From Candidatus Omnitrophota bacterium (lineage in GTDB: Bacteria; Omnitrophota; Gorgyraeia; Duberdicusellales; 4484-171), in NCBI GenBank assembly GCA_021735655.1, contig JAIPGM010000001.1, positions 256,001 through 320,000 of the forward strand: 64,000 nt of DNA, written 5' to 3'. Below are positions 4,197 to 60,447 of this stretch, one piece after another. The notes under the pieces are model-generated. The model was not told the origin of the DNA and searched no databases. It saw nothing but the letters and a program-made list of their open reading frames with translations. Made by a program: the position numbers and the translations under genes. Each line of letters starts with the position of its first letter. The stretch's first letter is position 1.

Positions 4197-4208
4197 GGAG
4201 GTTAACAA

Positions 4209-4388
4209 ATGAAAAGAAAAACTAGTTTTAAACAGAATAAAGAGATTCTGTGGCAAATATTCTTTTTGATTAAAGAAAATAAGAAATGGTGGTTACTGCC
4301 TATATTTTTAGTATTAGTAATTTTAGGTTTATTTGTCAGCTTGACAGGAAATCAATCTATTTTGCCTGCAGTTTACGCTTTATTTTAA
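4209..4388 (+). CDS. small membrane protein (59 aa), DUF5989-like
   Basis: ORF just below the track cutoff: MKRKTSFKQNKEILWQIFFLIKENKKWWLLPIFLVLVILGLFVSLTGNQSILPAVYALF. It has the KKWWL..P single-TM pattern I recall for the DUF5989 family. GGAGG lies upstream. Confidence 0.45.
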   Translation: MKRKTSFKQNKEILWQIFFLIKENKKWWLLPIFLVLVILGLFVSLTGNQSILPAVYALF

Positions 4389-4403
4389 TATTACTGAAAT
4401 AAA

Positions 4404-4592
4404 ATGGCAACATTATTAAGAAAAGTTATTGCTTCTGTTGTTTGTTCTATAGCATTGCTATTGCCGCATAGACTTAGAATTATCTATTGCGAGATACTTG
4501 GCTGGTCGATGCAATTAATCTTTTGGGCTTATATTTCTATACTTAAATTTATAATAAAGTCACTTAAAGTGGGTAAAATTAAAACGCAATGA
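4404..4592 (+). CDS. small hydrophobic protein (62 aa), translationally coupled to the downstream PP-loop ATPase
   Basis: ORF whose stop overlaps the next start (ATGA at 4589-4592). Strongly hydrophobic. No recognisable domain. Confidence 0.3.
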   Translation: MATLLRKVIASVVCSIALLLPHRLRIIYCEILGWSMQLIFWAYISILKFIIKSLKVGKIKTQ

Positions 4593-21074: not shown

Positions 21075-22058
21075 ATGGATATTTCAGTAATAATTCCATC
21101 GTATCGACCAGCTGACATAAAAGAATGTTTGAAATCTATTTTTGAATCTGATCTTAGGCCTTGTGAGATTATCTTGGTAGATGATTGTTCAACTCTTGAT
21201 TATTTCAGAGAAATAGATAGTTTTTGCCAGATAATTAAGTTGAAAGAACACGTCGGTCCGGCCAAAGCCAGAAATATTGGTGCTTGTCAAGCAAAAGGGG
21301 ATATTTTTTGTTTCATTGATTCCGATGTTAAAATATTTAGCAATACCTTGAGATTAATAAGTGATTCATTTCAATCTTTACCAGAAATTGCTGCCGTTCA
21401 AACTGCATGCACAGAATATTGTAGATTCACGAATTTTGCAAGCCAATATCATAATTTATACCTATATTTTCACATTGAAGCAATCAGGTGTAAATATATT
21501 AGGACTTTCATCGGAAATTGTTTTGCAGTAAAAAAAGAAGACTTTGTTTCGGTAGGAGGGTTTAATGAAAATATTAAAAATGCAAGCGTCGAGGATGGTG
21601 ATTTTGGTATGCGACTGTCTGAGCAGGAAAGAATAATATATCTAAATAAAAACATTAAAATTGAGCACAGAAGTTATATTAAATTACGAGGCGTACTAAA
21701 AAGAATGTTTATTCAATCCCAAGATAAAGTGTATACTTTAATGAAAAATAAAAGTTTATTTAAATTTTCTCCGGATAAAACTCCTCACTCGAAGGAAAAA
21801 ATATTTTCAGTATTATTGTCGCCTTTGTTGCTGATCAGTTCCATTATTTTAATTTTTGCTCCAAAAACGTATGTAATTTTTCTCTCAGCCTTATTGCTAT
21901 ATTTATTGTCTAGCAGGCAGTTTATCTATTTTACCTTGAAATCCAAAGGGATAATGTTTGCAATTAAAGCTGCTGTTTTTTATTACCTTAATTGCTTAGT
22001 TGCTTTCGTTGGCATAACCTGGGGTGTAATCAAGTTTGGGGGGGGTAATATTATCTAA
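21075..22058 (+). CDS. family-2 glycosyltransferase with C-terminal TM domain (cassette copy 2)
   Basis: MDISVIIPSYRP, FIDSDV, VGGFNEN. Hydrophobic C-terminus. A G8 tract lies in the last codons. Confidence 0.65.
   Translation: MDISVIIPSYRPADIKECLKSIFESDLRPCEIILVDDCSTLDYFREIDSFCQIIKLKEHVGPAKARNIGACQAKGDIFCFIDSDVKIFSNTLRLISDSFQSLPEIAAVQTACTEYCRFTNFASQYHNLYLYFHIEAIRCKYIRTFIGNCFAVKKEDFVSVGGFNENIKNASVEDGDFGMRLSEQERIIYLNKNIKIEHRSYIKLRGVLKRMFIQSQDKVYTLMKNKSLFKFSPDKTPHSKEKIFSVLLSPLLLISSIILIFAPKTYVIFLSALLLYLLSSRQFIYFTLKSKGIMFAIKAAVFYYLNCLVAFVGITWGVIKFGGGNII
22038..22045. repeat. G8 homopolymer in the last codons of the GT2 gene
   Basis: Counted directly: 8 consecutive G encoding GGG, 7 codons before the stop. 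Confidence 0.9.
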
Positions 22059-23164
22059 TGCAGTATATTAAACAAATTTTTAAACTGATTAATAAGAAAA
22101 GTGTGAATCCAGAATATGTTACATTTTTTATTACTAATAAATGCAATGCAAAGTGTAAGCACTGCTTATATTGGTCTAGCCTTAATTCAGACGAAAACGA
22201 ATTGTCTTGTGAGGAGGTTAAAAAGATATCGCAAAATATGGGCAACTTTATATTTTTACTTATCACCGGCGGTGAGCCATTCATGAGAGAAGATATTTCA
22301 GAGATTGCTCGTATTTTTTATGAGAATAACAACATTAAAAAACTTTCCCTAGTGACCAATGGCTATTTTACTGATAAAATAATTGGACATACTAAGGAAA
22401 TATTAAGAAGGTGTCCAAAATTACAGTTGAACCTAAGTATTTCCTTGGATGGCATTGGCAAAAGGCACGATGAAATTAGAGGCCTAGAGGGTATTTTTCA
22501 AAGAGCAATTAATACCATTGGCAATCTAAAAAAAGTTCAGAATTCTTATCCGAAATTATCTATTTCAACCGTTTGCTCATTTTCAGTTTTAAATCAAAAC
22601 GATATTTTTGATATTTATCATTACGCAAGGGATGTTCTTAAACTTGATTCATTTAATTGTCCTTTAGTTCGCGGTAATTTAAAAGACAACTCAATAAAAT
22701 CAAGTGATATAGCTATATACAAAAAGCTTTCAGAGGTTGTGAGAGCTGATGTTGTCAGCGGTAAATTAAAAGGGGCCAGCGATCATTTTATATCTAATGT
22801 AATATCTGCGGCTAAATTTATTGCGACAGATTTAAGCGTAAAGACTTTTGAGGCTGACAAATATATAACTCCCTGTTATGCCGGTAAAATAAATGTAGTT
22901 ATTTACCCTGACGGAGGGGTGTTTCCTTGTGAATTGCGAAAGGAAAAGTTGGGAGATTTAAGGACGGCGAATTATGATTTTAAAAAAATATGGTTTTCAA
23001 AAAAATCAAAAAGAGTTCTTGAGAAAATAAAAGAAACTAAATGCCATTGTTTTCATGGTTGTAATATGTTACCTAATGTTTTATATAATTCTCGATATAT
23101 ACCTAAGATGACTGTGAATTATATAAATGTATTATTAAAGAGATCAGGCAATAACTACAATTGA
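22058..23164 (+). CDS. radical SAM protein with Cys-rich C-terminal extension, paralog B2
   Basis: FFITNKCNAKCKHCLYW, TGGEPFMREDI, FPCELR...CHCFHGC. Start overlaps the GT2 stop. Confidence 0.75.
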   Translation: MQYIKQIFKLINKKSVNPEYVTFFITNKCNAKCKHCLYWSSLNSDENELSCEEVKKISQNMGNFIFLLITGGEPFMREDISEIARIFYENNNIKKLSLVTNGYFTDKIIGHTKEILRRCPKLQLNLSISLDGIGKRHDEIRGLEGIFQRAINTIGNLKKVQNSYPKLSISTVCSFSVLNQNDIFDIYHYARDVLKLDSFNCPLVRGNLKDNSIKSSDIAIYKKLSEVVRADVVSGKLKGASDHFISNVISAAKFIATDLSVKTFEADKYITPCYAGKINVVIYPDGGVFPCELRKEKLGDLRTANYDFKKIWFSKKSKRVLEKIKETKCHCFHGCNMLPNVLYNSRYIPKMTVNYINVLLKRSGNNYN

Positions 23165-24982: not shown

Positions 24983-25133
24983 AGGCCTTTCGACTTAAAG
25001 GTTAGGGAAATTTTTTAAGAAATACGATTAAAAAAGTATTTGATTCTATATAGAATATGATAAAATTAAGGGATAAAGAAGTGTGTTTTTATATTAGATG
25101 CACAATTTACAATGCTAAAGGGAGGTGTCCAAA

Positions 25134-25886
25134 ATGATTAGGACCATGGAAACTTTATGTTTTGCGGCTTTGATTTTTGCAATAACATTTGCTTTTACTC
25201 CATTAGCTTTAGCTTATGATTTAAGTAAGTATTACCCTTTAAATGAAGGTGATAGTTGGGAGTATTTAACAAGCGGAATAGGCTACGTTGAGGGTGGAGC
25301 AGATAAGGCAGAATTTTCCGATATGATTGAAGTAGATAAAATAGAATCAAAAGAATCTATTTCCGGTAAAAGGACCATGGTAAAGGTTTCGGGAGCCTTA
25401 GAGGAAAAAGAATGTTTGGCTGTAGACTCAGAAGGACTAAAACTGTACAAGTTAATAGATGGTCCAGGTGGTTATGATATATTTACCCCGCCGTTCATGC
25501 AGTTGGCAAATCTTGCAGTTGGAGAGAGTAAAACTTTCTTAAGCAATGCAATCGGGTATGGTGATCGCTCAAGTGAAGGAGCCAGACTGAATACAAATAC
25601 GATAACATTGGAATCAGTGGAAAGAGTAGAAGTTCCCGCAGGATTATTTGATGATTGCCTTAAATTTACGTCGACGGGTGAAAGAGCCTACGCAGATGGC
25701 AATTATGAAAATATTGAGTCTACCGTTTGGCTTGCTTTAGGGGTAGGTGTAGTTAAGGCTGATTATATTTATATCGAACATGATTTTTCTTCAGGCGAGG
25801 ATAGTACTACTACCAACAAGCGAAATTTGGTTTCAGCAAAGGTAAATGGTCAACAAATCGGAACTCCAAAGGAAAGTCAAGAATAA
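25134..25886 (+). CDS. secreted hypothetical protein (signal peptide)
   Basis: ATG 25134 with AAGGGAGG 9 nt upstream. Signal-peptide-like N-terminus with AYD cleavage-like site. Confidence 0.4.
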   Translation: MIRTMETLCFAALIFAITFAFTPLALAYDLSKYYPLNEGDSWEYLTSGIGYVEGGADKAEFSDMIEVDKIESKESISGKRTMVKVSGALEEKECLAVDSEGLKLYKLIDGPGGYDIFTPPFMQLANLAVGESKTFLSNAIGYGDRSSEGARLNTNTITLESVERVEVPAGLFDDCLKFTSTGERAYADGNYENIESTVWLALGVGVVKADYIYIEHDFSSGEDSTTTNKRNLVSAKVNGQQIGTPKESQE

Positions 25887-25899
25887 TAAGGCCAGCGTG

Positions 25900-25934
25900 C
25901 AAGTTTTAGCTAATGAAACTTGATAATTTTTTTA
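25900..25934 (+). terminator. rho-independent terminator after the secreted-protein gene
   Basis: Stem CAAGTTT / AAACTTG with a 9-nt loop, followed by ATAATTTTTTT. Confidence 0.5.
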
Positions 25935-25986
25935 TTGCAGTTTCATAAATCCTTCTATACGATTCAAATTCAATATTACAATTTAT

Positions 25987-25995
25987 GGGGGGGGG
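25987..25995. repeat. G9 homopolymer, intergenic, about 120 bp upstream of the GT4 gene
   Basis: Counted directly: 9 consecutive G in an AT-rich intergenic region. Confidence 0.9.
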
Positions 25996-26116
25996 TTAAT
26001 CCGATCAACATGTGAAGTTCCTCATGAATTGCAGTCTTATCAAAATACGCATAAACATAAAATACGAATTAATAAAGATGTTAAGCTATATATAGTTGAT
26101 AGTTGTAGGGCGAAAA

Positions 26117-27220
26117 ATGAAAAAAATTCTGGTTTTTAACGCTGGAGCTTATATCTACGGAGCAGAAAGAGGGTTAATTAATTTTATTAGAACTTTGTCT
26201 GATAAATTTGAAATAACGGTAGTCTTGCCTTCCCAAGGCCCCCTTTCTAAAAAAATCGAAAAATTAAATGTATCTTTAAAAATATTTCCGATACCGATCC
26301 TTAAAATCTCGCTTTCACCGCTATATTATATTTTTTTTCCTTTTCATTTTATTTTTTCCGTTATTTATTTTAGCATTTATGCAATCCGCAAAGATATTGA
26401 AATAATTTGTAGTAATTCTTTACTTTTAGTTTTTCCGGCTATTGTTGCTAAATTTACCAAAAAAAGACATATCTGGTATTTAAGAGAGTTTCTGCCTTCT
26501 AGTTTTTTGAATAAAGCTCTAGGGGCATTCATTATCAGATTTTCAAACCAAATAATATGTCAATCTCAAGCTATTAGGGAAGCCTTGCTTGGCAAAGAAA
26601 GGGGCATTATTATTTATGAACCTTTAAATGCTACGGACTATAAAATCTACAAATCAGATCTTGCAAGAAGTGAGCTAAATATCCCTATAAAATCAACGGT
26701 TATTTCAATAATTTCTCGAGTGCATCCTTCTAAGGGACAGTATGAATTTATAGTTGATATTAAAAGGACATTAAAGAAAAATCCCAACATCCTTTTGGTT
26801 ATCGCCGGTGATATATCGCCGAACAATTTAAGAAATCGTTTATATAAAGCAAAAATAGAAAAATTGATAGAGGGGGATACTCTAAAAAATGTAGTCCTTT
26901 TAGGTTTTAGAGATGATGTTGATAGGATACTTTCTTTAAGCAATATTTGCGTTTTTCCTTTTAAAAGAAAAGAACCGTTTGGAATTTCTGTAGCTGAAAG
27001 TTTAACTTTTGGTAAAATAACTTTTTTTCCTCAGGTTGGAGGTCTAAAAGAAGTACGTGATATCTTTGGTCGGGGAAACGATTTTAGTATAGATAGGATT
27101 TGTGAGATAGCCTCAAACTTTGAACCAGCACGAGTAGAAAAGCTCCAAGAATTATATATCCCTGAAGAGCTTTCTATCGCGACATACAAAAATAAACTTA
27201 TTCCTATTTTTGAAAATTAA
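26117..27220 (+). CDS. family-4 (GT-B) glycosyltransferase
   Basis: C-terminal EPFGISVAE (EX7E motif), GT-B-like layout. ATG at 26117 chosen; the track starts at TTG 26096. Confidence 0.6.
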   Translation: MKKILVFNAGAYIYGAERGLINFIRTLSDKFEITVVLPSQGPLSKKIEKLNVSLKIFPIPILKISLSPLYYIFFPFHFIFSVIYFSIYAIRKDIEIICSNSLLLVFPAIVAKFTKKRHIWYLREFLPSSFLNKALGAFIIRFSNQIICQSQAIREALLGKERGIIIYEPLNATDYKIYKSDLARSELNIPIKSTVISIISRVHPSKGQYEFIVDIKRTLKKNPNILLVIAGDISPNNLRNRLYKAKIEKLIEGDTLKNVVLLGFRDDVDRILSLSNICVFPFKRKEPFGISVAESLTFGKITFFPQVGGLKEVRDIFGRGNDFSIDRICEIASNFEPARVEKLQELYIPEELSIATYKNKLIPIFEN

Positions 27221-28348
27221 ATGAAGCCGTTTAAAAAAAAGATACTTTTTATTATTACCCACCTTGAATTGGGAGGAGCTCAGGGTCAGTTGCTTTTGCT
27301 TGTAAAAAATCTAGATAGAAACAAGTACTCACTGTATTTATCTTCCGGAGACCAGGGCTATCTCAAGGAAGAATTTTTAAAACTCCCATATTTACATATA
27401 AAATTAATTCCGGAGTTGATAAGAAATATTAATCCTTTCTACGATTTTATTGCTTTTTTGAAATTATATTTCTATATCAAAAAAAATAAATTCGATATAG
27501 TTCATACTAATTCCCCTAAAGCTTCTATTTTGGGAAGATGGGCGGCTTATCTGGCAGGCGTAAAAGGTATTATTTACACTGTACACGGTTGGCCTTTTCA
27601 TAAATTCATGAATCCGATAGTGCATTATTTATATATTTTAATTGAAAAAGTGACCGCCAAGATTACAAAAAAGATAATAGTTGTTTCTGAAGCAGACCTT
27701 AGAACAGGAATAGAGAATGAAATCGCCGATAAAAATAGAATTTTTCTTGTTCATTATGGCATAGAAATAGATAAGTTTAATAAGGTGTATGATCAAAGAA
27801 GCGAAATTTTTCCTGGTAATACTGTTTTTACAATCTCTTCGTTTAAGCCTCAAAAGGATATTTTTAATTTTTTGAAATTAGCAAAAATGCTTCTTGATAG
27901 AAATCCTCAGTTGAATTTTATCATAGCCGGAGACGGACCTTTGCGTAAGAGAGTGGAGAAAAGGATAGAGTTACTAGGGCTAAGCGGTAAGGTGCACCTA
28001 AAGGGCTGGTCTGACGATGTTTCTCTTTTATTTAAAATGGCATCGTTGTTTGTGCTCACTTCTTTATGGGAAGGTCTACCAGTGTCTTTGATTGAAGCGG
28101 TTGTATCAGGAGTTCCGGTGGTAGTCACTAATACCGGTGGCATTTTCGATATAGTGAAAAGCGGCAATCAGGGGGTGGTCGTCAATCCAACCAATATTTT
28201 AGAAATAGAGAGCGCTTGTTGGGAAATATTGAAAAACTATGATAATTGGAGTACAATTGTCAGGAATGGCCGGAAAAAGTTAAATTTAAAATATTGGTCT
28301 TTTGCTAGAACGCTGAGAGAAATAGAAAATATTTATGCTACTATTTAA
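27221..28348 (+). CDS. family-4 (GT-B) glycosyltransferase
   Basis: N-terminal LGGAQ, C-terminal EGLPVSLIEAVVSGVPVVVTNTGG (EX7E). Confidence 0.75.
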   Translation: MKPFKKKILFIITHLELGGAQGQLLLLVKNLDRNKYSLYLSSGDQGYLKEEFLKLPYLHIKLIPELIRNINPFYDFIAFLKLYFYIKKNKFDIVHTNSPKASILGRWAAYLAGVKGIIYTVHGWPFHKFMNPIVHYLYILIEKVTAKITKKIIVVSEADLRTGIENEIADKNRIFLVHYGIEIDKFNKVYDQRSEIFPGNTVFTISSFKPQKDIFNFLKLAKMLLDRNPQLNFIIAGDGPLRKRVEKRIELLGLSGKVHLKGWSDDVSLLFKMASLFVLTSLWEGLPVSLIEAVVSGVPVVVTNTGGIFDIVKSGNQGVVVNPTNILEIESACWEILKNYDNWSTIVRNGRKKLNLKYWSFARTLREIENIYATI

Positions 28349-29339
28349 GTTGATAGAGCTGTTAGCGCTTTTCTTTTTTGCTTTTACGCTCAGTATATTT
28401 TTTCTTGCTATTTCAAGAAAGCTATCTTTAAAACACAATCTTTTTATCAGAGATAGAAATATACCTTATATTGGGGGGGTTAGTTTTTCTCTGGTTTTTA
28501 TCATTTGCCTTATTTTATTTTCTTTTATTAAAGCTAAAGTTGTGCCTTTTCAGTTTATTTGGATAATTACCTTTTCATTTATATTGTTGTTGGTTGAGTG
28601 GATAGACGATTTGAAGGATTTAAAGCTTAAGGCCAGAGTCCTGATTCAAATCATTTTTGTATTTTTATTTCTCCTTTACGGAAAGCAAATCCAGATTTAT
28701 TTTTTACCAAACTGGGCTAATTATCTTATTTCTTTTTTATGGATAGTAGGGATAACCAATGCTTTTAATCATCTTGATGTCGCTGATGGGCTATGTGCAG
28801 GTATAGCTTTGATTGTTAGCTTGGCATGTTTAGTGATAGCTTTAAAGACTGGAAGCTTTTTATTGTTTGTTTTTGTTGCTCTTTTTGGGGTTCTTTTGGC
28901 TTTTCTTTTGTTTAATTTCCCTCCGGCTAAAATATTCATGGGTAATGCTGGAAGTCACTTTTTAGGCTTCTTGTTTGCAACCTTAAGCATTTATGGAGAC
29001 TATGCCAGCTTCGATAATATTTTAGCCATTTTTTTGCCCCTGTTGGTTCTAGGATTGCCGATTGTTGACACATTTTATCTCATTGTGGTGCGTGCTAGTA
29101 AGAAAATCTCTCCTTTACGGAAAAGTGATGATCACATCATTTTACGTTATTTGTTAAAGGGCTATTCTTACAAGCGGTCTTTGGCAAGTATTTATTTTTT
29201 AACTGCGGTTTGGTGTTTAAGTGCAATTCTTTTATTGAATGGTCCAGGCCTATGGTGTTTAATTTTTCTGATTATTGCCTTTTTGGGAACAATTCTTATG
29301 ATCATTAAGGCTAATGTCAGTAAATTTTCTAGTTGTTAG
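28335..29339 (+). CDS. MraY/WecA-family polyprenyl-phosphate sugar-1-phosphate transferase (initiating transferase)
   Basis: Signature NAFNHLDVADGL. About 10 TM helices. Confidence 0.75.
   Translation: MLLFKLIELLALFFFAFTLSIFFLAISRKLSLKHNLFIRDRNIPYIGGVSFSLVFIICLILFSFIKAKVVPFQFIWIITFSFILLLVEWIDDLKDLKLKARVLIQIIFVFLFLLYGKQIQIYFLPNWANYLISFLWIVGITNAFNHLDVADGLCAGIALIVSLACLVIALKTGSFLLFVFVALFGVLLAFLLFNFPPAKIFMGNAGSHFLGFLFATLSIYGDYASFDNILAIFLPLLVLGLPIVDTFYLIVVRASKKISPLRKSDDHIILRYLLKGYSYKRSLASIYFLTAVWCLSAILLLNGPGLWCLIFLIIAFLGTILMIIKANVSKFSSC
28473..28479. repeat. G7 homopolymer inside the WecA/MraY-family gene (codons 47-49)
   Basis: Counted directly: ATT GGG GGG GTT encodes I-G-G-V. Confidence 0.9.
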
Positions 29340-30524
29340 TCCGAGGATTATCCACCAGAGAAAAGCTACTTGAGGAATAAAGAAAGAGAAATCGACAATA
29401 TTATGCAGGAGAAACGACAACCCAGCTGCGAATATAGCTAATGATAGTAATGTGTTTTTCGAAGCTATAAGTATTTTTAAGTTCATTCTTACATAATTAA
29501 AAACTATCACTAGCCAGCTTAAAATTCCTATCATTCCAAGCTCACCCCAAATTTGAAGATAAGAGTTGTGGCTATAGCGAGACCCGGGCAAATAAAAATT
29601 GCCTAAACCGACGCCGACAAAAGGGTGTTGTTTGATTATTTCAGTTGTTCCGCGCCAGTAAGCGACTCTTTGGTGAATAGAAAAAAAGGGGTTGGTTATT
29701 TTTTCCGGATTGTTCAGACGTAGATAAAAAACAATTATTGATAATAAGCCGATTACAAGAATAGCGGTAATGCTTTTTTTGTTTATTTTTTTACGCCAAA
29801 ATAGTAGAAAAGGCAACAGACTAAGCAAGGATAACCATCCGCCGATAGATTTAGTAAAGAAGAAGGCAATAAAAGAAATAAGGACGCAAAAAAAGGCCAG
29901 GTATTTATCAAATACCCATTTAGCTTCTTCTTTTTTTTGTAAAAGTAGGCCAAGGCTGATGAAGATTAGTATTATTAGATAACCGGCTAAAAGATTGGGG
30001 TTAATGAAAGGGGCCAAGGCTCTTGATTGCGATAATAGCTCTTTTACAAAATAGTTATTAAATAATGCCCAAAGGCTGTAAATGGCCACAAAGCAGCAAC
30101 TCAGGAGGAGTGTTTTTATCAGAACTATTTGATTGTTTTTTGGGGTAAGCTTAGCGAAGTAAAATAATAACAGAATGATAAAAAAGTCATAAACTTTATT
30201 TAGATTTGATACAAGATCAGAAACAAACAGTGCTGAACCAAATAGGTTTAAGAAAAAAACTATGATTATTAAGTTAAAAAAACTTTTCTTGATATTTTTT
30301 CGGAAGATAAAAATATATAAAAGGCTAGAGCAAAAAATTACAAAATTAACTGTTGAATCAAGCATCCTAGAGCCAAATATCGGCAGAAGCGGGTAAAGGA
30401 AAATACAGCTAACTATAATTTTCCATATTGCTGACTGTAGTTTTAATTTCTGTTTTTCAGTCAGAGGCCTGAGCGGTGAATTAAGTTTATTCGCTATTGA
30501 TTTGGTTAAAGTAATTATTGGCAT
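29259..30524 (-). CDS. O-antigen ligase / Wzy_C-family polytopic membrane protein (ligase, polymerase or O-oligosaccharyltransferase)
   Basis: About 12 TM helices. Periplasmic loop RVAYWRGTTEIIKQHPFVGVGLGNFY resembles the Wzy_C/WaaL motif. Confidence 0.5.
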   Translation of the reverse strand: MPIITLTKSIANKLNSPLRPLTEKQKLKLQSAIWKIIVSCIFLYPLLPIFGSRMLDSTVNFVIFCSSLLYIFIFRKNIKKSFFNLIIIVFFLNLFGSALFVSDLVSNLNKVYDFFIILLLFYFAKLTPKNNQIVLIKTLLLSCCFVAIYSLWALFNNYFVKELLSQSRALAPFINPNLLAGYLIILIFISLGLLLQKKEEAKWVFDKYLAFFCVLISFIAFFFTKSIGGWLSLLSLLPFLLFWRKKINKKSITAILVIGLLSIIVFYLRLNNPEKITNPFFSIHQRVAYWRGTTEIIKQHPFVGVGLGNFYLPGSRYSHNSYLQIWGELGMIGILSWLVIVFNYVRMNLKILIASKNTLLSLAIFAAGLSFLLHNIVDFSFFIPQVAFLWWIILGLTTRKFTDISLNDHKNCSQKGNNQKN

Positions 30525-30612
30525 ATTTTTTAGGTTTGTTACTATTATAACTAGAATTTGACATATAGTAAAAAGATTTATATACTTTAAAGGTAGATTT
30601 AAAAGGTAAAAC

Positions 30613-31899
30613 GTGAAAAAATTATTTTTAACTATAATTATTTTCGGGCTGTTATTTTTGATATCTAGCTATCTCGAAGCTGCTATCTCTTATCGGTCGA
30701 GTAAGGTTTTTTTTGAGGGAAAACAGCTTTTAGTAGCTAAACCTGATAGTCAGGGTCGATATAGCCAGGCTTCTCCCTTTATAATCAAAGGAGTTACCTG
30801 GTCTCCGGAGACAGCCGCTCCTGATTTTGGTCCTAACCCAATATGCCCAAACGAAACTGTAGAATATGGTTTTTTCTTTGATTGGGCCGGCCGTATACCT
30901 CAGGGGCATGAGATTTTTGTTTATTGGAAGGAGCGGCAGTTTGTTAAGCATTACTTAACTGATGTTCCGCTGATGAGGAAGATGAATTTAAATACAGTTA
31001 GGGTTTATAGTTCCTTCGGCGATGATTTTAGAGAGGGCCGTAAGGTTTTAGATGAGTTATTCGATAATGGGATTATGATTATTATGAATGTAGCAATGTC
31101 TAAAGTTGACATTGATAACCAGAAGTATTTAAAAGTAGTCGAAGCTTACAAAGATCATCCGGCAATTCTTTTTTGGGCGATCGGTAACGAGTGGAATCTT
31201 GACTATAATAAATATTGGGGTTATGAAACAGTAGAAGCAGCAGCCCAAGCTACAAACCAGGTAGCTAAAGCAATAAAGCAAGTTGATCCAGATCATCCGG
31301 TGACCTCAGTTTTGGGTGATCGTTTTAGTGATTGCGATTTTGAAGATTCGGTAAGCCACATACTTGATATTTGTTTAGAGATAGATGTTTGGGGTTTTAA
31401 TGTTTACCGGGGAAAAAGCTTTAGAGATTTTTTTTCACAAGTTGAGAGCTTAACTGAAAGACCTTTTTATATCTCTGAGTTTGGAACCGACTCTTTTCGT
31501 ACTACTAAATTCAAGGTGGTTGATGAGCATCAGGCTGACAACTGCAAAGGTTGGGAGCATGAGGCTTTACAGGCAAAGTTTGTTTTAGGCCTTTGGCGGG
31601 AGATAGAAAGTAATCTTTCGGGAATTCATTCCGATAAGCAGTGTTTAGGCGGCCTGGTCCATGAGTTTAATGATTCGCTTTGGAAGGTTGGCTCTTATCA
31701 TGTAGGTTTAGGAGGTTTAGTTGACTATTACTCCGAAGAAAGATCTAGTTTTAGAACTTATAATACCGAAGGGTTTTATCTTCCTGGGGGTCACCCTGAT
31801 GATGTGGCTAACGAGGAGTATTTCGGTATAGTTAACGCTGAACGCAAGCCTAAAGAAATATTCTTTAAATTGCAGGAATATTACGCTAAGTTAAAGTGA
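30613..31899 (+). CDS. secreted clan GH-A (GH5-like TIM-barrel) glycoside hydrolase
   Basis: Signal peptide. AIGNEWNL (NE acid/base) and YISEFGTD (Glu nucleophile) motifs. GTG start after AAAAGG. Confidence 0.45.
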   Translation: MKKLFLTIIIFGLLFLISSYLEAAISYRSSKVFFEGKQLLVAKPDSQGRYSQASPFIIKGVTWSPETAAPDFGPNPICPNETVEYGFFFDWAGRIPQGHEIFVYWKERQFVKHYLTDVPLMRKMNLNTVRVYSSFGDDFREGRKVLDELFDNGIMIIMNVAMSKVDIDNQKYLKVVEAYKDHPAILFWAIGNEWNLDYNKYWGYETVEAAAQATNQVAKAIKQVDPDHPVTSVLGDRFSDCDFEDSVSHILDICLEIDVWGFNVYRGKSFRDFFSQVESLTERPFYISEFGTDSFRTTKFKVVDEHQADNCKGWEHEALQAKFVLGLWREIESNLSGIHSDKQCLGGLVHEFNDSLWKVGSYHVGLGGLVDYYSEERSSFRTYNTEGFYLPGGHPDDVANEEYFGIVNAERKPKEIFFKLQEYYAKLK

Positions 31900-37631: not shown

Positions 37632-40076
37632 ATGTTTAATCGTTTTACTGAAAGAGCAAGAAAAGTTTTAGTTTTGGCAAAAGAAGAGGCCCGTCGTTTT
37701 AATCACGATTATATTGGCACTGAGCATATCCTTCTAGGATTGATTCGCGAAGGCGAAGGGGTAGCCTGTGCGGTTTTGCAAAATTTAGGCGTTGATTTAG
37801 AACGTTTACGTATTGAAATTGAAAAGTTGATTTCTACCGGAAGTGTATCCTCGGTGTTGGGAGATATTCCTTTTACCCCTCGCGCTAAAAAGGCTTTAGA
37901 ACTGTCGGCTGAGGAGGCTAGGAATTTAGGTCATAATTATATTGGAACCGAACATATACTTTTAGGTTTACTTCGTGAAGAAGAAGGCATTGCCTCACAG
38001 GTTTTAATTTCTTTAGGGGCGGATTTAAAAAGAATAAAAAATGAGATTTCTGCTCTTTTAGGCGGAGCAACACAAACTCAAAATCAGAATACTAATCAAA
38101 GTTCGTCGAAAACGCCGGCTTTGGATTCTTTTGGTCGTGACTTAACTAAGCTAACTCGTGATGGAAAGCTTGACCCAGTTATCGGAAGAAAAACCCAAAT
38201 TGAAAGAGTGATCCAAATTTTATCCCGAAGAACAAAAAATAACCCGGTGCTTTTAGGTGAAGCCGGAGTTGGTAAGACAGCGATTGTTGAGGGTTTAGCC
38301 CAGGACATTATTAAAGGTGATGTTCCCGAGGTTTTGCGGGGAAAACGAATAATAGTTTTAGACTTGGCTTTAATGATTGCCGGAACCAAGTATCGCGGTC
38401 AGTTTGAGGAAAGAATAAAAGCGGTAATGGAGGAGATAAAGCGTTCTAAAGATGTAATTATCTTTATCGATGAGCTCCATACTTTAGTTGGTGCCGGTGC
38501 CGCCGAAGGAGCGATTGATGCTTCTAATATTTTAAAACCAGCCTTAAGCCGCGGCGAAATCCAATGCATTGGAGCAACTACTCTTGATGAATATAGAAAA
38601 CATATTGAGAAAGATGCTGCTCTTGAGCGGAGATTTCAGTCAATATATGTTGAACCCAATAGCGTTGAGGAAACTATTCAGATTTTAGAAGGTTTGCGTG
38701 ATAAGTACGAAGCTCATCATCGGGTTAAATTTACCGACGAGTCATTATCGGCTGCGGCAAAACTGTCTGATCGTTATGTTTCGGGAAGATTTTTGCCGGA
38801 TAAAGCTATCGATTTAATTGATGAGTCGGGTGCCCGATCAAGATTGAATGTATTAACCGCACCTTCAGAAATAAAGGAACTAGAGGAGAGAATTTCTAAT
38901 ATTATTATTGAAAAAGAAGCGCTTATTAAGCAACAGGATTTCGAAAAGGCTGCTCGTCTTCGTGATGAAGAAAAAACTTTGCGCCTTAAGTTGGAGGTTT
39001 TAAGAAAAGAATGGAGTAAGAAAAGAGATCAGATTACTCCTGAGGTTGGATATGAAGAAATTGCTCGGCTAGTAGCTAGCATTACTGGTGTGCCGATCTA
39101 TCGTTTAGAGGAAAAAGAATCAGAAAAACTTTTAAAGATAGAGCATGATCTACGTGAAAGAGTGGCCGGGCAAGATGAAGCAATTGATGCAATTGCTCGT
39201 TCAGTTAGAAGAGCCAGGGCTGGAATCAAAGAACCGCGTCGGCCGATTGGTTCGTTTTTGTTTATGGGCCCTACCGGGGTAGGCAAGACTTTGCTTGCTC
39301 GGGCTTTAGCTGAATATATGTTTGGTAATGAAGAAGCACTTATCCAATTGGACATGAGTGAATATATGGAAAAATTTAATGTTTCAAGGTTGCTTGGGGC
39401 TCCTCCGGGATATGTTGGTTATGAAGAGGGGGGTCAGCTTACTGAGCGCGTGAGACGTCGGCCCTATTCGGTTGTGCTTTTAGACGAAATTGAAAAAGCT
39501 CATCCTGATGTGTTTAATATACTTTTACAAATTTTAGAAGAAGGAAGATTAACTGATAGTTATGGTCGAAGAGTTGATTTTAGAAATACAATTTTGATTA
39601 TGACTTCTAATGTCGGAGCTGGAATAATCAGAAAGCGGGGCTCTTTGGGGTTTAAAGCAATTAGTGAAGATATAAGCTATGAAGAAATGAAGAATCTTCT
39701 TCTTGAAGAAGTAAAGAAGACCTTTAAGCCGGAATTTTTAAATCGTTTAGATGAGACGGTTGTTTTTAGGCCATTGAATAGAAAAGATTTGGCAAGGATA
39801 GTAGATATCGAAATAGCTTATGTTAATAGTCGAATAGCTGAGCAAGGTTTTGAAGCTATACTAAGCCCTAAAGCTAAGGATTTATTTATTGAAAAAGGGT
39901 TTGATCCGGTTTTTGGCGCAAGACCCTTAAAGAGAGTTATTCAAAGATTCCTTGAGGATCCTTTGGCTGAGGATATTATTAGAGGCAAATTTACCGAAAA
40001 GCTAAAAAAGAAGTCAGAGAGCGATAAAATAAAGATAAAAGTAATTAAAAAAGGGGGAGCTTTAGTATTTGAATGA
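37632..40076 (+). CDS. clpC: ATP-dependent Clp protease ATPase subunit ClpC
   Basis: Two Clp_N repeats, two AAA+ modules (GEAGVGKT, GPTGVGKT), UVR-like linker. Confidence 0.9.
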   Translation: MFNRFTERARKVLVLAKEEARRFNHDYIGTEHILLGLIREGEGVACAVLQNLGVDLERLRIEIEKLISTGSVSSVLGDIPFTPRAKKALELSAEEARNLGHNYIGTEHILLGLLREEEGIASQVLISLGADLKRIKNEISALLGGATQTQNQNTNQSSSKTPALDSFGRDLTKLTRDGKLDPVIGRKTQIERVIQILSRRTKNNPVLLGEAGVGKTAIVEGLAQDIIKGDVPEVLRGKRIIVLDLALMIAGTKYRGQFEERIKAVMEEIKRSKDVIIFIDELHTLVGAGAAEGAIDASNILKPALSRGEIQCIGATTLDEYRKHIEKDAALERRFQSIYVEPNSVEETIQILEGLRDKYEAHHRVKFTDESLSAAAKLSDRYVSGRFLPDKAIDLIDESGARSRLNVLTAPSEIKELEERISNIIIEKEALIKQQDFEKAARLRDEEKTLRLKLEVLRKEWSKKRDQITPEVGYEEIARLVASITGVPIYRLEEKESEKLLKIEHDLRERVAGQDEAIDAIARSVRRARAGIKEPRRPIGSFLFMGPTGVGKTLLARALAEYMFGNEEALIQLDMSEYMEKFNVSRLLGAPPGYVGYEEGGQLTERVRRRPYSVVLLDEIEKAHPDVFNILLQILEEGRLTDSYGRRVDFRNTILIMTSNVGAGIIRKRGSLGFKAISEDISYEEMKNLLLEEVKKTFKPEFLNRLDETVVFRPLNRKDLARIVDIEIAYVNSRIAEQGFEAILSPKAKDLFIEKGFDPVFGARPLKRVIQRFLEDPLAEDIIRGKFTEKLKKKSESDKIKIKVIKKGGALVFE

Positions 40077-56945: not shown

Positions 56946-57530
56946 TTAAGCCCCGGTGTGATAGATATAAAATGCTTCATCATTGCCAACAACTGGATGT
57001 ATGCGAAAGGTTCCATTAGTTAGAATACCATTATCAAGGGTATCGTCAATTTTCTGTAATGGTTCAGCTTTTGGTGCACAAAAAACACCTGGCGTAGGAA
57101 AGCAATGGTTAGAAATTAAAATACTAAGCTCATAAGGAGCTCCATCTGCTTCGAGATCATAACAATAAAGAGCATAAATTCCTCCCCAGGGATGCATGAC
57201 CATACTACCGTCTAAGTATGGACCGTCCCAACCTCTAATCGTTGCACCAGAGGTTGCATTAACCAAAGTAGAACTATATACCGGTACCCATTCTGTTTCA
57301 TCTACGAAACCATCGGCGGGGTCATCGTCGGGAAATTCTTCTAATGGCCATTGAGCGGTATCAGCGTAATGGGATAAGATAGCAGTCTTGGTAGCTTTAA
57401 TATCAGCTATAGCCCGAGTGACTTTAGCCTTCTCAATAGCCCTGAAAGCATTAGGAGCAATGATTGCCGCTAGAATTGCAATGATAGCAATGACTACGAT
57501 AAGTTCGATTAGAGTGAATGATTTTTTCAT
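56946..57530 (-). CDS. prepilin-type (class III signal) GspG-like pseudopilin, copy 1
   Basis: MKKSFTLIELIVVIAIIAILAAI leader with Glu+5. GWDGPY and HPWGG motifs. Two Cys pairs. Confidence 0.75.
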   Translation of the reverse strand: MKKSFTLIELIVVIAIIAILAAIIAPNAFRAIEKAKVTRAIADIKATKTAILSHYADTAQWPLEEFPDDDPADGFVDETEWVPVYSSTLVNATSGATIRGWDGPYLDGSMVMHPWGGIYALYCYDLEADGAPYELSILISNHCFPTPGVFCAPKAEPLQKIDDTLDNGILTNGTFRIHPVVGNDEAFYIYHTGA

Positions 57531-57562
57531 AAAAAATTTCCTTTTGAATAATTATATCACAA
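57400..57562. repeat. direct repeat copy 1 (5' coding end plus promoter of pseudopilin gene); period 700 bp
   Basis: 57481-57562 differs from 58181-58262 at one position; flanking ~80 bp about 75% identical. Confidence 0.85.
57551..57559 (-). promoter_or_regulatory. extended -10 element (TGATATAAT on minus strand) plus AAAGGAAA RBS for pseudopilin copy 1
   Basis: Reverse complement reads TGTGATATAATTATTCAAAAGGAAATTTTTTATG. Confidence 0.5.
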
Positions 57563-57607
57563 CAGGAAGAGGTAATTTAATAGGGTAATTTGCTGTTTGC
57601 CTAAATA

Positions 57608-58234
57608 TTATGGAGTATAGCGATCGTCATAATCCCAAAATAATATCCAGTGAATATCAGACATTGACCCTCCGGCTGATCCGCGAACATTACCGGTATT
57701 GAGCGGCCAATCTTCGTCATCATCCACCATAGTGTCTAACTTTTTAGCAGCACTCTGTGGCATTCGACAGGTACTAGGATTAATAACGCCTTCAACGTAA
57801 GGATAACAATAATTATCTATTTCTAAAACTAATTCTTCTATGCCATTTACCGGATCGCTATAATCTTGCCAACAAGTAAAAGCATATTGGCCTCCCCAAG
57901 GATGCATTCCGGGAGTCTTTTCCACATAAGGTCCATCCCAGCCTGGCCAGGTTGCTGGTGCCCAATGCAGAGTAATATTGAGAGGATTTGTGTCTAAAGG
58001 GTTTTGACCTGGTAACAAGTGCATTTGCGTACCAGTGTAGCCATCCATAACTTTACGTCCAGTATCAGCATAAAGAGCACCAACTGAGGTTTTAAGAACT
58101 CTGGAATCAGCAATTACTCTGGCAACTTTGGCTTTTTCAATGGCCTTAAAGGCATTAGGAGCGATAATTGCTGCAAGGATAGCAATGATAGCAATGACTA
58201 CGATAAGTTCGATTAGAGTGAATGATTTTTTCAT
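57608..58234 (-). CDS. prepilin-type GspG-like pseudopilin, copy 2
   Basis: First ~45 aa nearly identical to copy 1, then divergent. GWDGPY and HPWGG motifs. Confidence 0.75.
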   Translation of the reverse strand: MKKSFTLIELIVVIAIIAILAAIIAPNAFKAIEKAKVARVIADSRVLKTSVGALYADTGRKVMDGYTGTQMHLLPGQNPLDTNPLNITLHWAPATWPGWDGPYVEKTPGMHPWGGQYAFTCWQDYSDPVNGIEELVLEIDNYCYPYVEGVINPSTCRMPQSAAKKLDTMVDDDEDWPLNTGNVRGSAGGSMSDIHWILFWDYDDRYTP

Positions 58235-58262
58235 AAAAAATCTCCTTTTGAATAATTATATC
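58100..58262. repeat. direct repeat copy 2
   Basis: See copy 1. Confidence 0.85.
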
Positions 58263-58263
58263 A
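58255..58263 (-). promoter_or_regulatory. extended -10 element (TGATATAAT) plus AAAGGAGA RBS for pseudopilin copy 2
   Basis: Same element, lying inside the duplicated block. Confidence 0.5.
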
Positions 58264-58289
58264 CGATAAGATGGATTTAATAGTGTAAT

Positions 58290-59375
58290 TTACCTTATTA
58301 GGCGCAATCCGGTTACGCCGATAGTTAAAAAGAATAGTGGCGCCATCCAAGGGCTAATCATTGGCAGAATAATGCCTGATTTTCCTAAAGCAACGCTAAA
58401 TGAAGAGATAAAGTAGTAGATAAAGATAAAGATAAACCCTACCCCCAAGGAAGTAAGGCCAACCTTACGTTTTTTAATTTCTAGAGCAAAGGGTAGAATT
58501 CCGATAACTAAGAAGAAATGGGAGAAAGGCTCGACTAATTTTTGGTTATAGTGAATGATTAATTCTTTTAGTTTTTCTTGTGAGCCGATTTTTTTTAACT
58601 GATCTATTTCACGTTGTAAATCATTGAGAGGAGTGAATTCCAGGAGAATACTTTTTTTAAGTAGAAGTTCCTGAGGGTTTTCAGCTAAGGGAATAGGCTT
58701 TTTGTCCAAGTTTTGGCTGTTGATGCTTTTACCATAGCGGTCAAAGGTATTTTCTTTAACTAATGTAGCGGTCCACTGTTCATTTTTATAGTAGATAGTT
58801 TTACAGATTATTTCTTTTATAAAGTCACCTTCTTTGTCTTCTTGAAAGATTGCAACATCAGTTAAGATTTTTTCACTTGGTGAAAATTCCCGGGCAAAGA
58901 AAATCATTCCACCTGAGGAGAACTTAAAGTTTCGCTCAAGCGAAGATCCGGAGAGGTCTTTTTTTATGAAGTTTCTTTTAATTTCTTCAACTTCTCTTTG
59001 AGATTTAATCAGTACTTTTTCTTGAAGGTAGAAGGCGCCAGAGGAGACAACAATTGAAAACAAAATCAGCGGCAAAGACAGGGACATAATGCTTACTCCG
59101 GCTGAGCGCATTCCGGCAATTTCGTTACCCCGATTGAGTTCCCCTAAGGTATAAAGCATACTGATCAGGAGTGCAAAAGGGCTTACCCATTTGAAGATCC
59201 AAGGAATCATACTTAGATAATAACGCACGAGCATTAGAAATGGTATTTTTGATTTTAGGATATCGGCAAGATTACTGAAGGTATCAATGACAAAGAAAAG
59301 ACCGATAAATATGGCTAGGATAGAAATATATCCTAAAACAGCACTTTTTAAAGTATATTTATCGAGAATGCGCAT
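58290..59375 (-). CDS. lptG: LPS export ABC permease (YjgP/YjgQ family), LptG-like
   Basis: 6-TM permease with large periplasmic beta-jellyroll insert. Pairs with the upstream paralog. Confidence 0.65.
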   Translation of the reverse strand: MRILDKYTLKSAVLGYISILAIFIGLFFVIDTFSNLADILKSKIPFLMLVRYYLSMIPWIFKWVSPFALLISMLYTLGELNRGNEIAGMRSAGVSIMSLSLPLILFSIVVSSGAFYLQEKVLIKSQREVEEIKRNFIKKDLSGSSLERNFKFSSGGMIFFAREFSPSEKILTDVAIFQEDKEGDFIKEIICKTIYYKNEQWTATLVKENTFDRYGKSINSQNLDKKPIPLAENPQELLLKKSILLEFTPLNDLQREIDQLKKIGSQEKLKELIIHYNQKLVEPFSHFFLVIGILPFALEIKKRKVGLTSLGVGFIFIFIYYFISSFSVALGKSGIILPMISPWMAPLFFLTIGVTGLRLIR

Positions 59376-60447
59376 ACTTATAGATAAGAGAAACTCCTAA
59401 AAGCATAATTATAAAACTGGATAGCCAAATTCCGATCCAAGGGGTTACTATTTGACGTTCGATTAAGGCTTTACCTAGTATTGAAAGCAGGTAGTAGGTT
59501 AGTGCACCTAAACAGGCAATACCGAAGTTAATCGATTTTTCCCGGTGGCGTACAACTAGAGATACTCCGAAACCTAAGATAGTGAAGGCAATGATCGAGA
59601 AGGATAGATTTATCCTTTCGTGAAATTCAGTCAGAAAATCGGTCGTTTCTATGCCTTTTTGCCGGTATTGTTTAATCTTACTGAGTAGCTCTTCTATTCT
59701 CATGTCTGAAGGTTTCTTTTCGGTTTTAGTCGGTTTTTCTTTTTCAATCGGGATATTTTTAAAGAAGATTTTAAATTCACCACGTACATCACGTTTGCCG
59801 GCGGAGTCGATGTCATGATAATAGACATCTTCCAGTTTCATTTTTAGCACGTCTTTCTCTACGATGAACTCTCCTTGTTTAGCTACGATCATTGTGGTCG
59901 CTTTTTTATTTTCCTTATCGAGCATATAAATTATGACATTTTTTAATTTATTTTCTTGCTTATCGGATACATAGATGACATGATTTTCGAAATGCTCTAA
60001 AAAGACCCCCGGCTCAATAAAGGCCGATATATTTTTCATAAGTATTTTTTTTACATTATGGTAGCGGTAGGTAAGTTGAGGCACTACCTTATCATTTAGA
60101 ATAAATAGTAGCAATGCGAAGATTGTTCCAATAATCAGAAAAATGTGTAGTATTTTAAAAGTTGAGACCCCGGCTACTCGCATGGCAATTACTTCATTGT
60201 CGGCGATTAATCGGCCCATAGATAGGAGTACACCCATGAAGAATGCTAATGGTAGGGTGTAGCGCATGAGCGGCGGGAAGGCAAATGACAACAAAGTAAA
60301 GGCGTCTTTAATATTAACGCCTTTACGAACAATCATATCTGAGAGATCAATCAGTTTGCCCATCAACAGCACGGTGCTTAAAATAAGAAGCGAGAAGATA
60401 AAAACAGTAAAGAAATCTTTAATGATGTAGCTGCGGATTATTTTCAT
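59359..60447 (-). CDS. lptF: LPS export ABC permease (YjgP/YjgQ family), LptF-like
   Basis: Same family. Overlaps lptG by 17 nt. Confidence 0.65.
   Translation of the reverse strand: MKIIRSYIIKDFFTVFIFSLLILSTVLLMGKLIDLSDMIVRKGVNIKDAFTLLSFAFPPLMRYTLPLAFFMGVLLSMGRLIADNEVIAMRVAGVSTFKILHIFLIIGTIFALLLFILNDKVVPQLTYRYHNVKKILMKNISAFIEPGVFLEHFENHVIYVSDKQENKLKNVIIYMLDKENKKATTMIVAKQGEFIVEKDVLKMKLEDVYYHDIDSAGKRDVRGEFKIFFKNIPIEKEKPTKTEKKPSDMRIEELLSKIKQYRQKGIETTDFLTEFHERINLSFSIIAFTILGFGVSLVVRHREKSINFGIACLGALTYYLLSILGKALIERQIVTPWIGIWLSSFIIMLLGVSLIYKYAHSR

Follow-up and report, generated by a model that had tools for sequence, protein, structure and literature searches.

The locus described here raises the question whether a run of nine guanines in an AT-rich bacterial genome, located in the sole gap upstream of a glycan-initiation operon, is a slippage-prone element that tunes this operon, or whether it is a rare homopolymer without any effect on expression. 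The source of the DNA is a singleton metagenome-assembled genome (MAG) of a Candidatus Omnitrophota bacterium, in which the locus lies on a 341-kb contig. Our analysis covered a 64-kb stretch of this contig, which we call the window and which has a GC content of 35.8%. The reading that we tentatively favor, though we would put it somewhat below an even chance, is that the tract would be prone to slippage and would tune the operon from a position upstream of the promoter or in the leader, by analogy with known poly-G switches that lie in such positions. The tract and its surroundings comprise the following features, in the order of their coordinates.

25125-25886, forward strand: upstream gene for a 253-aa hypothetical protein, whose translation has a signal-peptide-like N-terminal segment

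25887-26116, forward strand: non-coding gap of 230 bp (31% GC) that separates the gene for a secreted hypothetical protein from the first GT4 gene

25900-25933, forward strand: weak AT-rich hairpin of 7 bp (caagttt/aaacttg, 25900-25922), followed by ATAA (4 nt) and T7

25987-25995, forward strand: G9 tract (C9 on the reverse strand)

26011-26026, no strand assigned: CRP/FNR-like half-palindrome TGTGA-N6-TCATG, found by eye, with 8/10 matches to TGTGA-N6-TCACA

26117-27220, forward strand: GT4 glycosyltransferase 1, 367 aa, first gene of the operon (PF00534/PF13692/PF13439; 100% identical to MCF7907372.1)

27221-28348, forward strand: GT4 glycosyltransferase 2, 375 aa (Pfam PF00534/PF13439; MCF7907373.1), the start of which abuts the stop of the first GT4 gene

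28335-29339, forward strand: WecA/MraY-family polyprenyl-phosphate HexNAc-1-phosphate transferase, 334 aa (PF00953; weak match to TIGR02380; MCF7907374.1)

29259-30524, reverse strand: convergent Wzy_C (O-antigen ligase/polymerase-like) gene (PF04932)

The ATG at 26117 is supported as the start of the first GT4 gene by the database protein MCF7907372.1, which is identical over the full length of 367 aa. Since the three forward-strand genes abut or overlap, wecA overlapping the second GT4 gene by 14 nt, it is reasonable to regard them as an operon. The GT4-GT4-WecA gene content that had been assigned to it in the initial annotation is confirmed by the Pfam matches (PF00534/PF13439 and PF00953). 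The same four-gene module (GT4, GT4, WecA and the convergent Wzy_C gene) is also present in three other Omnitrophota contigs, L003, L004 and L006, and this recurrence identifies it as a conserved envelope-glycan module, which is probably core. The 3′ ends of wecA and the Wzy_C gene overlap by 81 bp (29259-29339). The corresponding overlaps in L006 and L003 are 30 and 4 bp, respectively. The presence of LptF/LptG genes at 58290-60447 in the window indicates that the organism is a diderm with LPS.

Upstream of the operon, from 570 to approximately 25000, lies a big glycosyltransferase cluster that is interleaved with many radical SAM enzymes. This region (570-24982) is unusually dense. It contains at least eight radical SAM genes, several of them with SPASM domains, and their partners are GT2 glycosyltransferases, a PMT_2/ArnT-like transferase, YdjC, a DegT aminotransferase and a polysaccharide deacetylase, as well as GDSL lipases, an amine oxidase/GLF-like flavoprotein and an LPG_synthase_TM protein. 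The gene set suggests heavily modified glycan or lipid chemistry. Within it, a 392-bp “intergenic” stretch (4197-4588) carries a 59-aa ORF (4209-4388) that matches DUF5989, a small membrane protein family (E=3e-14), and that falls below the cut-offs of 60 and 100 aa used in the ORF listings.

Two further groups of genes in the window deserve mention. The segment 36063-44654 carries mcsA-like (UVR), mcsB (ATP:guanido phosphotransferase), clpC and radA genes, with MlaE and others between clpC and radA. The arrangement mcsA-mcsB-clpC-radA is typical of Firmicutes, where it is known as the class III heat-shock operon. Furthermore, two tandem paralogous type IV pilin/pseudopilin-like genes with an N_methyl motif are located on the reverse strand (56946-57530 and 57608-58234), and their upstream regions (57531-57607 and 58235-58289) are nearly identical (aaaaaatYtccttttgaataattatatcac...).

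The tract itself consists of exactly nine Gs, read from the sequence, in the context aatttatGGGGGGGGGttaatcc and, with longer flanks, caatattacaatttatGGGGGGGGGttaatccgatcaacatg. Its end is 121 bp away from the ATG of the first operon gene, in agreement with the roughly 120 bp given in the initial annotation, whose coordinates for the tract and length for the gap likewise hold. The same is true of its claim that this is the longest G run. G/C runs of at least six in the window are a G8 at 22038-22045, the G9, a G7 at 28473-28479, one G6 each at 39428 and 51110, and one C6. All the others are thus shorter, which makes G9 the longest G/C run in the window, where homopolymers of equal length are limited to one A9 and one T9. 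With nine Gs, the tract lies in the length range of hypermutable repeats (uninterrupted poly-G/C of at least 7-8); in Campylobacter, the cut-off that is accepted for phase-variable tracts, as used by PhasomeIt, is G≥7 (PMC6321876).

The explanation that competes best with a regulatory role is that the tract is neutral. According to this explanation, it arose by chance or by slippage drift, it may vary without an effect on expression, and its clustering with the G8 and G7 runs is coincidental. We consider this a quite real possibility, if one short of an even chance. In its favor, Markov models of order 1-5 that were trained on the window give a probability of 0.05-0.18 (i.e., 5-18%) for the occurrence of any G≥9, and a similar tract is expected in roughly one window per ten to twenty. 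Chance values of this kind are post hoc, because the tract was picked for being the longest run in the window, and this selection too speaks for neutrality. Other estimates point in the opposite direction. The run-length spectrum from G1 to G9 (7614, 2133, 363, 107, 18, 2, 1, 1 and 1) has a flat tail, whereas a decay of about 0.11-0.17 per step would be expected. In 177 kb of related Omnitrophota loci with a GC content of 30-42%, there are 111 G/C runs of length 5, 15 of length 6 and 5 of length 7, but none of 8 or more, and extrapolation from these loci yields approximately 0.05 runs of at least nine per 64 kb. For the 1.8 kb of intergenic DNA (G = 0.18), the expected number of G≥9 tracts is only 3e-4 to 3e-3. 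It also argues against neutrality that long G tracts are mutationally unstable and usually purged, and poly-G/C tracts are under-represented in prokaryotes generally (PMC2831843). On balance, G9 moderately exceeds chance, yet it is unusual rather than decisive.

With respect to the strand, the G>C skew on the forward strand is strong over the whole window (13523 G versus 9393 C), and 55 of the 61 ORFs, and hence almost all genes, are on this strand. Together, these two properties fit a leading-strand segment. Of the G/C runs of at least six in the window, which number six, five are Gs on the forward strand.

Two other tracts come into play when the locus is regarded as a whole.

22038-22045, forward strand: G8, 13 nt upstream of the stop codon of a GT2 gene (21075-22058) and 12 nt upstream of the ATG with which an overlapping radical SAM/SPASM gene (22058-23164) begins

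28473-28479, forward strand: G7 in wecA, codons 47-49 of 334, ATT GGG GGG GTT (I G G V)

All three of the longest G tracts in the window (G8, G9 and G7) thus lie within 6.4 kb of one glycan locus, for which p is approximately 0.03 with three random points, and this counts against neutrality. The G7 occupies bases 139-145 of the 1005 bases of wecA, within the first ~15% of the ORF, and a shift in either direction truncates the protein, since G8 leads to a stop at 49 aa and G6 to a stop at 76 aa. It therefore has the geometry of a translational switch, that is, a tract in the 5′ part of an ORF in which a change of +1 or −1 truncates the product. The Gly-Gly that it encodes is conserved in WecA, and in all related loci inspected (12/12) it is encoded by interrupted codons such as GGC GGT or GGA GGA. 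As GGG makes up 17% of the Gly codons here, the probability of GGG GGG is about 0.03, and this unusual codon choice also argues against a neutral origin. A length of seven is the lower limit of mutability (PMC6321876). Judged by its position and codons, the wecA G7 is a candidate for a translational on/off tract and shares its operon with G9.

The G8 is of a different kind. A shift of +1 or −1 alters only the last 3-8 residues of the GT2 protein and has almost no coding consequence. A role as a switch that fuses GT2 to the radical SAM protein was rejected, because both frameshifts stop within a few codons. The G8 could serve as a G-rich Shine-Dalgarno-like element for the downstream radical SAM/SPASM gene. 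That it sits where frameshifts are nearly harmless is what one would expect of tolerated rather than selected tracts, and thus supports the neutral explanation.

Length variants of the tract were sought among relatives. GT4-1, GT4-2, WecA and LysRS are exact matches to MCF7907372, MCF7907373, MCF7907374 and MCF7907377, respectively, and each of these four proteins is the sole member of its 90% identity cluster, with the next-best GT4 homolog being 56% identical. Exact-protein look-ups with GT4-1, GT4-2 and the upstream GT2 found no contigs, and a metagenome-wide scan for the flanks of the tract in combination with any G-run length found nothing. A genome scan returned only a relative with 49% identity, which has no gap upstream of its GT4 gene. 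The comparison set therefore consisted of homologs at 52-56% identity (L003-L006) and 15 metagenome loci, and 13 related loci include the GT4 start. None of these 13 loci (44-56% identity) has a G/C run of at least seven upstream of the orthologous GT4 gene, and a tract that recurs at homologous loci, as in a homology group, was thus not found, though with relatives that are only 44-56% identical this is a weak test. In most of the related loci, a GT2 gene abuts the GT4 gene and there is no gap. With no tract in these loci and no gap in most of them, the hypothetical gene, the gap and the tract appear to be specific to this lineage. The lack of conservation in any relative favors a neutral tract; across such distances, it is weak evidence against a function.

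What else does the gap contain? The upstream protein of 253 aa gives little guidance, as its sole domain signal is a sub-threshold DUF3108-like hit, and a comparison with NCBIfam gave no hit. The terminator that the initial annotation had placed behind this gene is the weakest of its statements. The hairpin and the T run exist, but the structure was not called by a terminator scan, and its local fold of −10.4 kcal/mol (z = −0.76) is no better than that of shuffled sequences. Transcription of the upstream gene may read through into the gap. An Rfam search of 25000-27000 gave no match at E≤10, and the fold of the whole gap as compared to shuffles (z = +0.32) gave no indication of a structured RNA, which is in line with a neutral tract. 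A leader starting at the tract is less structured than shuffles (z = +2.51). A 12-bp imperfect hairpin (25979-25990/26020-26031) that includes the first four Gs was considered and found insignificant (z = −0.82). A known structured RNA (riboswitch, sRNA or leader) was accordingly not found in the gap, there being neither an Rfam match nor a significant fold.

Coding readings fared no better. Mini-ORFs in the gap are all 36 aa or shorter. Translation from the ATG next to G9 gives MGGG followed by a stop, the peptides that would result from other tract lengths (9 to 50 aa) are without support, and the same applies to a 31-aa ORF with a TTG start that spans the tract. The direct and inverted repeats around the tract (D1-D4 and I2) were judged to be chance matches, because they are short, imperfect and present in two copies. 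The CRP/FNR-like motif sits 15 nt downstream of G9. By our own calculation, a match of this quality arises by chance in about 10% of gaps of 230 bp, and it is probably a chance match.

The position of the tract relative to the promoter of the operon is central to any regulatory interpretation. We scanned exhaustively for −35/−10 hexamer pairs with at least 7/12 matches and spacers of 15-19 nt, requiring A2 and T6 of the −10 hexamer. No pair was found that has G9 in its spacer. This contradicts the promoter-spacer position assumed in the initial annotation, and the spacer version of its idea is therefore rejected. The promoter-like sites in the gap place the tract elsewhere.

25977-25982, forward strand: −10-like TACAAT with a poor −35 (8/12), for which the predicted start at ~25989 would lie inside the tract and the tract at −2 to +6

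26037-26063, forward strand: promoter-like TTATCA-15-TAAAAT (9/12, noise level), with the tract at −83 to −75

26069-26096, forward strand: promoter-like TTAATA-16-TATAGT (9/12, noise level), with the tract at −116 to −108

TTGCAG-17-TACGAT, from the hexamer-pair scan: promoter-like, for which the tract would be at +17 to +25

The best two σ70-like sites thus sit 40-100 bp downstream of the tract. The one at 26069-26096 adjoins the start codon, with a leader of ~14 nt that carries an AGGG Shine-Dalgarno-like motif. A consensus scan of the gap found one promoter site, namely this one, versus 2.2 expected in shuffles, and sites with 9/12 matches are also numerous within coding sequence. None of the sites in the gap is thus a convincing promoter. 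Around TTGCA at 26029, inspection by eye for a σ54 −24/−12 motif (TGGCAC-N5-TTGC) revealed none. With these candidate positions, the tract may act from a place ahead of the promoter, at the point where transcription starts or within a leader. That it lies outside every plausible promoter spacer is at the same time a point in favor of neutrality.

The site at 25977-25982 allows for another explanation. If transcription started inside the G run, RNA polymerase could slip on the nine Gs, such that the operon would become sensitive to nucleotide pools or to tract length; such reiterative transcription is known at B. subtilis pyrG and E. coli pyrBI. We regard this as improbable for the present locus. 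The hexamer agrees with TATAAT in 5/6 positions and ends 5 nt before the tract, and transcripts from it would have a leader of 130 nt with unusually little structure (z = +2.5). There is also the precedent of the Treponema pallidum tpr genes, which start 4 nt downstream of poly-G (PMC7864442). However, the site has neither a usable −35 (2-3/6 matches) nor an extended −10 TG, and −10-like hexamers are frequent by chance in AT-rich DNA such as this, with 41 promoter-like sites in 6.9 kb. Furthermore, the few leaders that can be inferred in the window are short (~14-45 nt), and downstream of the tract there is no attenuator or terminator structure on which a poly-G RNA could act.

It is more improbable still that the tract, or its exact length, is an artifact of sequencing or assembly, such as a long-read homopolymer miscall or the poly-G noise of two-color Illumina chemistry. 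The concern arises because the genome was assembled from a metagenome, and homopolymer lengths are generally taken to be the least reliable feature of such assemblies (see also PMC8808543). Against it stands the location of the tract in mid-contig between unique flanking sequences. The coding G8 and G7 are in frame and give full-length alignable proteins, which argues that homopolymers were called accurately in this assembly, and two-color artifacts are, as is generally known, long terminal poly-G stretches rather than an internal G9.

We give next to no credence to the model in which the tract lies within the −35/−10 spacer of the operon and its length sets the spacing, as in Neisseria porA or T. 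pallidum tp0126 (precedents described in PMC7864442), since nothing speaks for it apart from the fact that the tract lies somewhere in the gap ahead of the operon, while it is contradicted for σ70-type promoters by the scan, the hexamers that flank the tract (TTTATG/TTATGG upstream; TTAATC, TCCGAT and CAACAT downstream) do not have the A2/T6 that are conserved in −10 elements, and the organism uses the canonical consensus. The latter follows from a near-consensus σ70 promoter, TTGACA-17-TATACT, with 11/12 matches at 30558-30586. This promoter occupies the divergent gap that separates the Wzy_C gene from a glycoside-hydrolase-like gene at 30613. In Neisseria meningitidis, the poly-G of porA is in the spacer and a poly-C of opc lies over the −35 (PMC7864442). 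What the present locus shares with porA and opc is a G/C homopolymer within the promoter region of a gene for a surface component, but it differs from them in that a placement within the spacer or over the −35 was looked for and not found. The probability that these five readings leave over belongs to explanations that we did not consider.

We thus return to a tract that tunes the operon from outside the spacer. G9 is a genuine and apparently lineage-specific simple-sequence repeat, located in the regulatory gap of a conserved glycan-initiation operon, and as such it is a plausible, though unproven, phase-variation candidate of a known kind. Long tracts near surface-structure genes are often phase-variable. 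In the mechanism we propose, G9 would be prone to slipped-strand mispairing, such that its length would shift between G8, G9 and G10 within the population. A change in length would then bring about a graded, heritable and reversible shift in transcription of the operon. Since no plausible spacer contains the tract, the effect would not come about via −35/−10 spacing. It would instead be exerted from ahead of the core promoter, from the point where the transcript begins or from the leader, in a mode of action like that of the poly-G tracts of Moraxella uspA1 and the T. pallidum tpr genes. Combined with the wecA G7 as a translational on/off tract, G9 would turn the surface glycan into a contingency trait. 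Such a switch is favored by the co-occurrence of G8 and G9 here as opposed to the lack of G/C runs of eight or more among the relatives, and by the clustering of the three longest G tracts at the glycan locus together with the GGG GGG codons of wecA. It is weakened by the near absence of coding consequences at G8, and also because control of accessory genes is the rule for classical switches, whereas this conserved module is probably core. Of this scheme, the length variability, the effect on transcription and the location of the real promoter are what we infer; the tract with its rarity and location, the functions of the genes, the rejection of a spacer position and the lineage-specific G7 are what the sequence shows.

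The closest mechanistic precedents are accordingly tracts that lie outside the spacer, namely those of uspA1 and tprL. In M. catarrhalis, uspA1 has a G(n) tract upstream of its ORF, and its expression is low at G9 and high at G10, the effect being graded rather than on/off (PMC7302503). The present locus is similar in that a homopolymer of G9/G10 size lies well upstream of the ORF and outside the −35/−10 spacer, with a surface structure encoded downstream. It differs from uspA1, for which both length variation and the effect on expression have been measured, in being known from sequence alone, and its target would be a glycan-synthesis operon of an uncultivated environmental bacterium rather than an adhesin gene. 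In T. pallidum, transcription of tprL starts 4 nt downstream of the tract, which is thus just upstream of the start and not in the spacer; G8 is active, G10 is inactive, and lengths of 7-11 occur in vivo, the tpr tracts having been assayed with reporter fusions in E. coli (PMC7864442). As at the tpr, tprL and tp0126 loci, where poly-G tracts of 7-11 nt are found upstream of surface-component genes (PMC7864442), G9 precedes genes for a surface component. The promoters of tprE/G/J combine CRP-type sites with poly-G (PMC7864442), and the CRP-like motif near G9 recalls this arrangement. For the tracts of T. pallidum, both conservation across strains and subspecies and variation in vivo are established, whereas G9 is absent from every available relative, and with a GC content of ~53% in T. 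pallidum, G tracts are commoner there. By analogy with these systems, a modulation of operon transcription by tract length would be plausible.

A further extension, which we consider unlikely but worth stating, is that G9 and the wecA G7, possibly together with the G8 at the GT2/radical-SAM junction, form a small “phasome” that would stochastically switch or tune the conserved glycan-initiation module. The presumed driver would be the pressure of phage or host on the surface glycan.

At the level of the genome pattern, the closest match is the phasome of Campylobacter. Surface-glycan genes are classic targets of poly-G/C switches, and the LOS, capsule and flagellar glycosylation loci of Campylobacter jejuni resemble the present locus in that an AT-rich genome carries several G≥7 tracts in a surface-glycan locus (PMC6321876). 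As in C. jejuni, one tract lies early in a glycosyltransferase-type ORF (here wecA), another is intergenic, and the lengths reach the PhasomeIt cut-off (PMC6321876). In Campylobacter, 77% of the tracts are intragenic, most of them are G8 or longer, and their variability is documented, whereas here a single MAG provides one intragenic tract that would switch its gene off, and this tract is only a G7.

In this context, it should be considered what the tract may mean for the Omnitrophota, members of which are often nano-sized and possibly host-dependent. A search of one literature library returned no paper linking Omnitrophota with phase variation, and homopolymer phase variation of surface glycans is to our knowledge so far known almost only from host-adapted pathogens and commensals. 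If the tract is invariant, it is a rare homopolymer of the ordinary sort, and it shows no more than that chance can produce long G runs in AT-rich intergenic DNA. If it varies and also tunes the operon, this mode of phase variation would be extended to a free-living or epibiotic candidate phylum known only from metagenomes, and the heterogeneity of populations behind such MAGs would gain a simple marker that can be scored in reads. Should the phasome hold true as well, this would be the first evidence of contingency loci based on simple-sequence repeats in uncultivated Omnitrophota.
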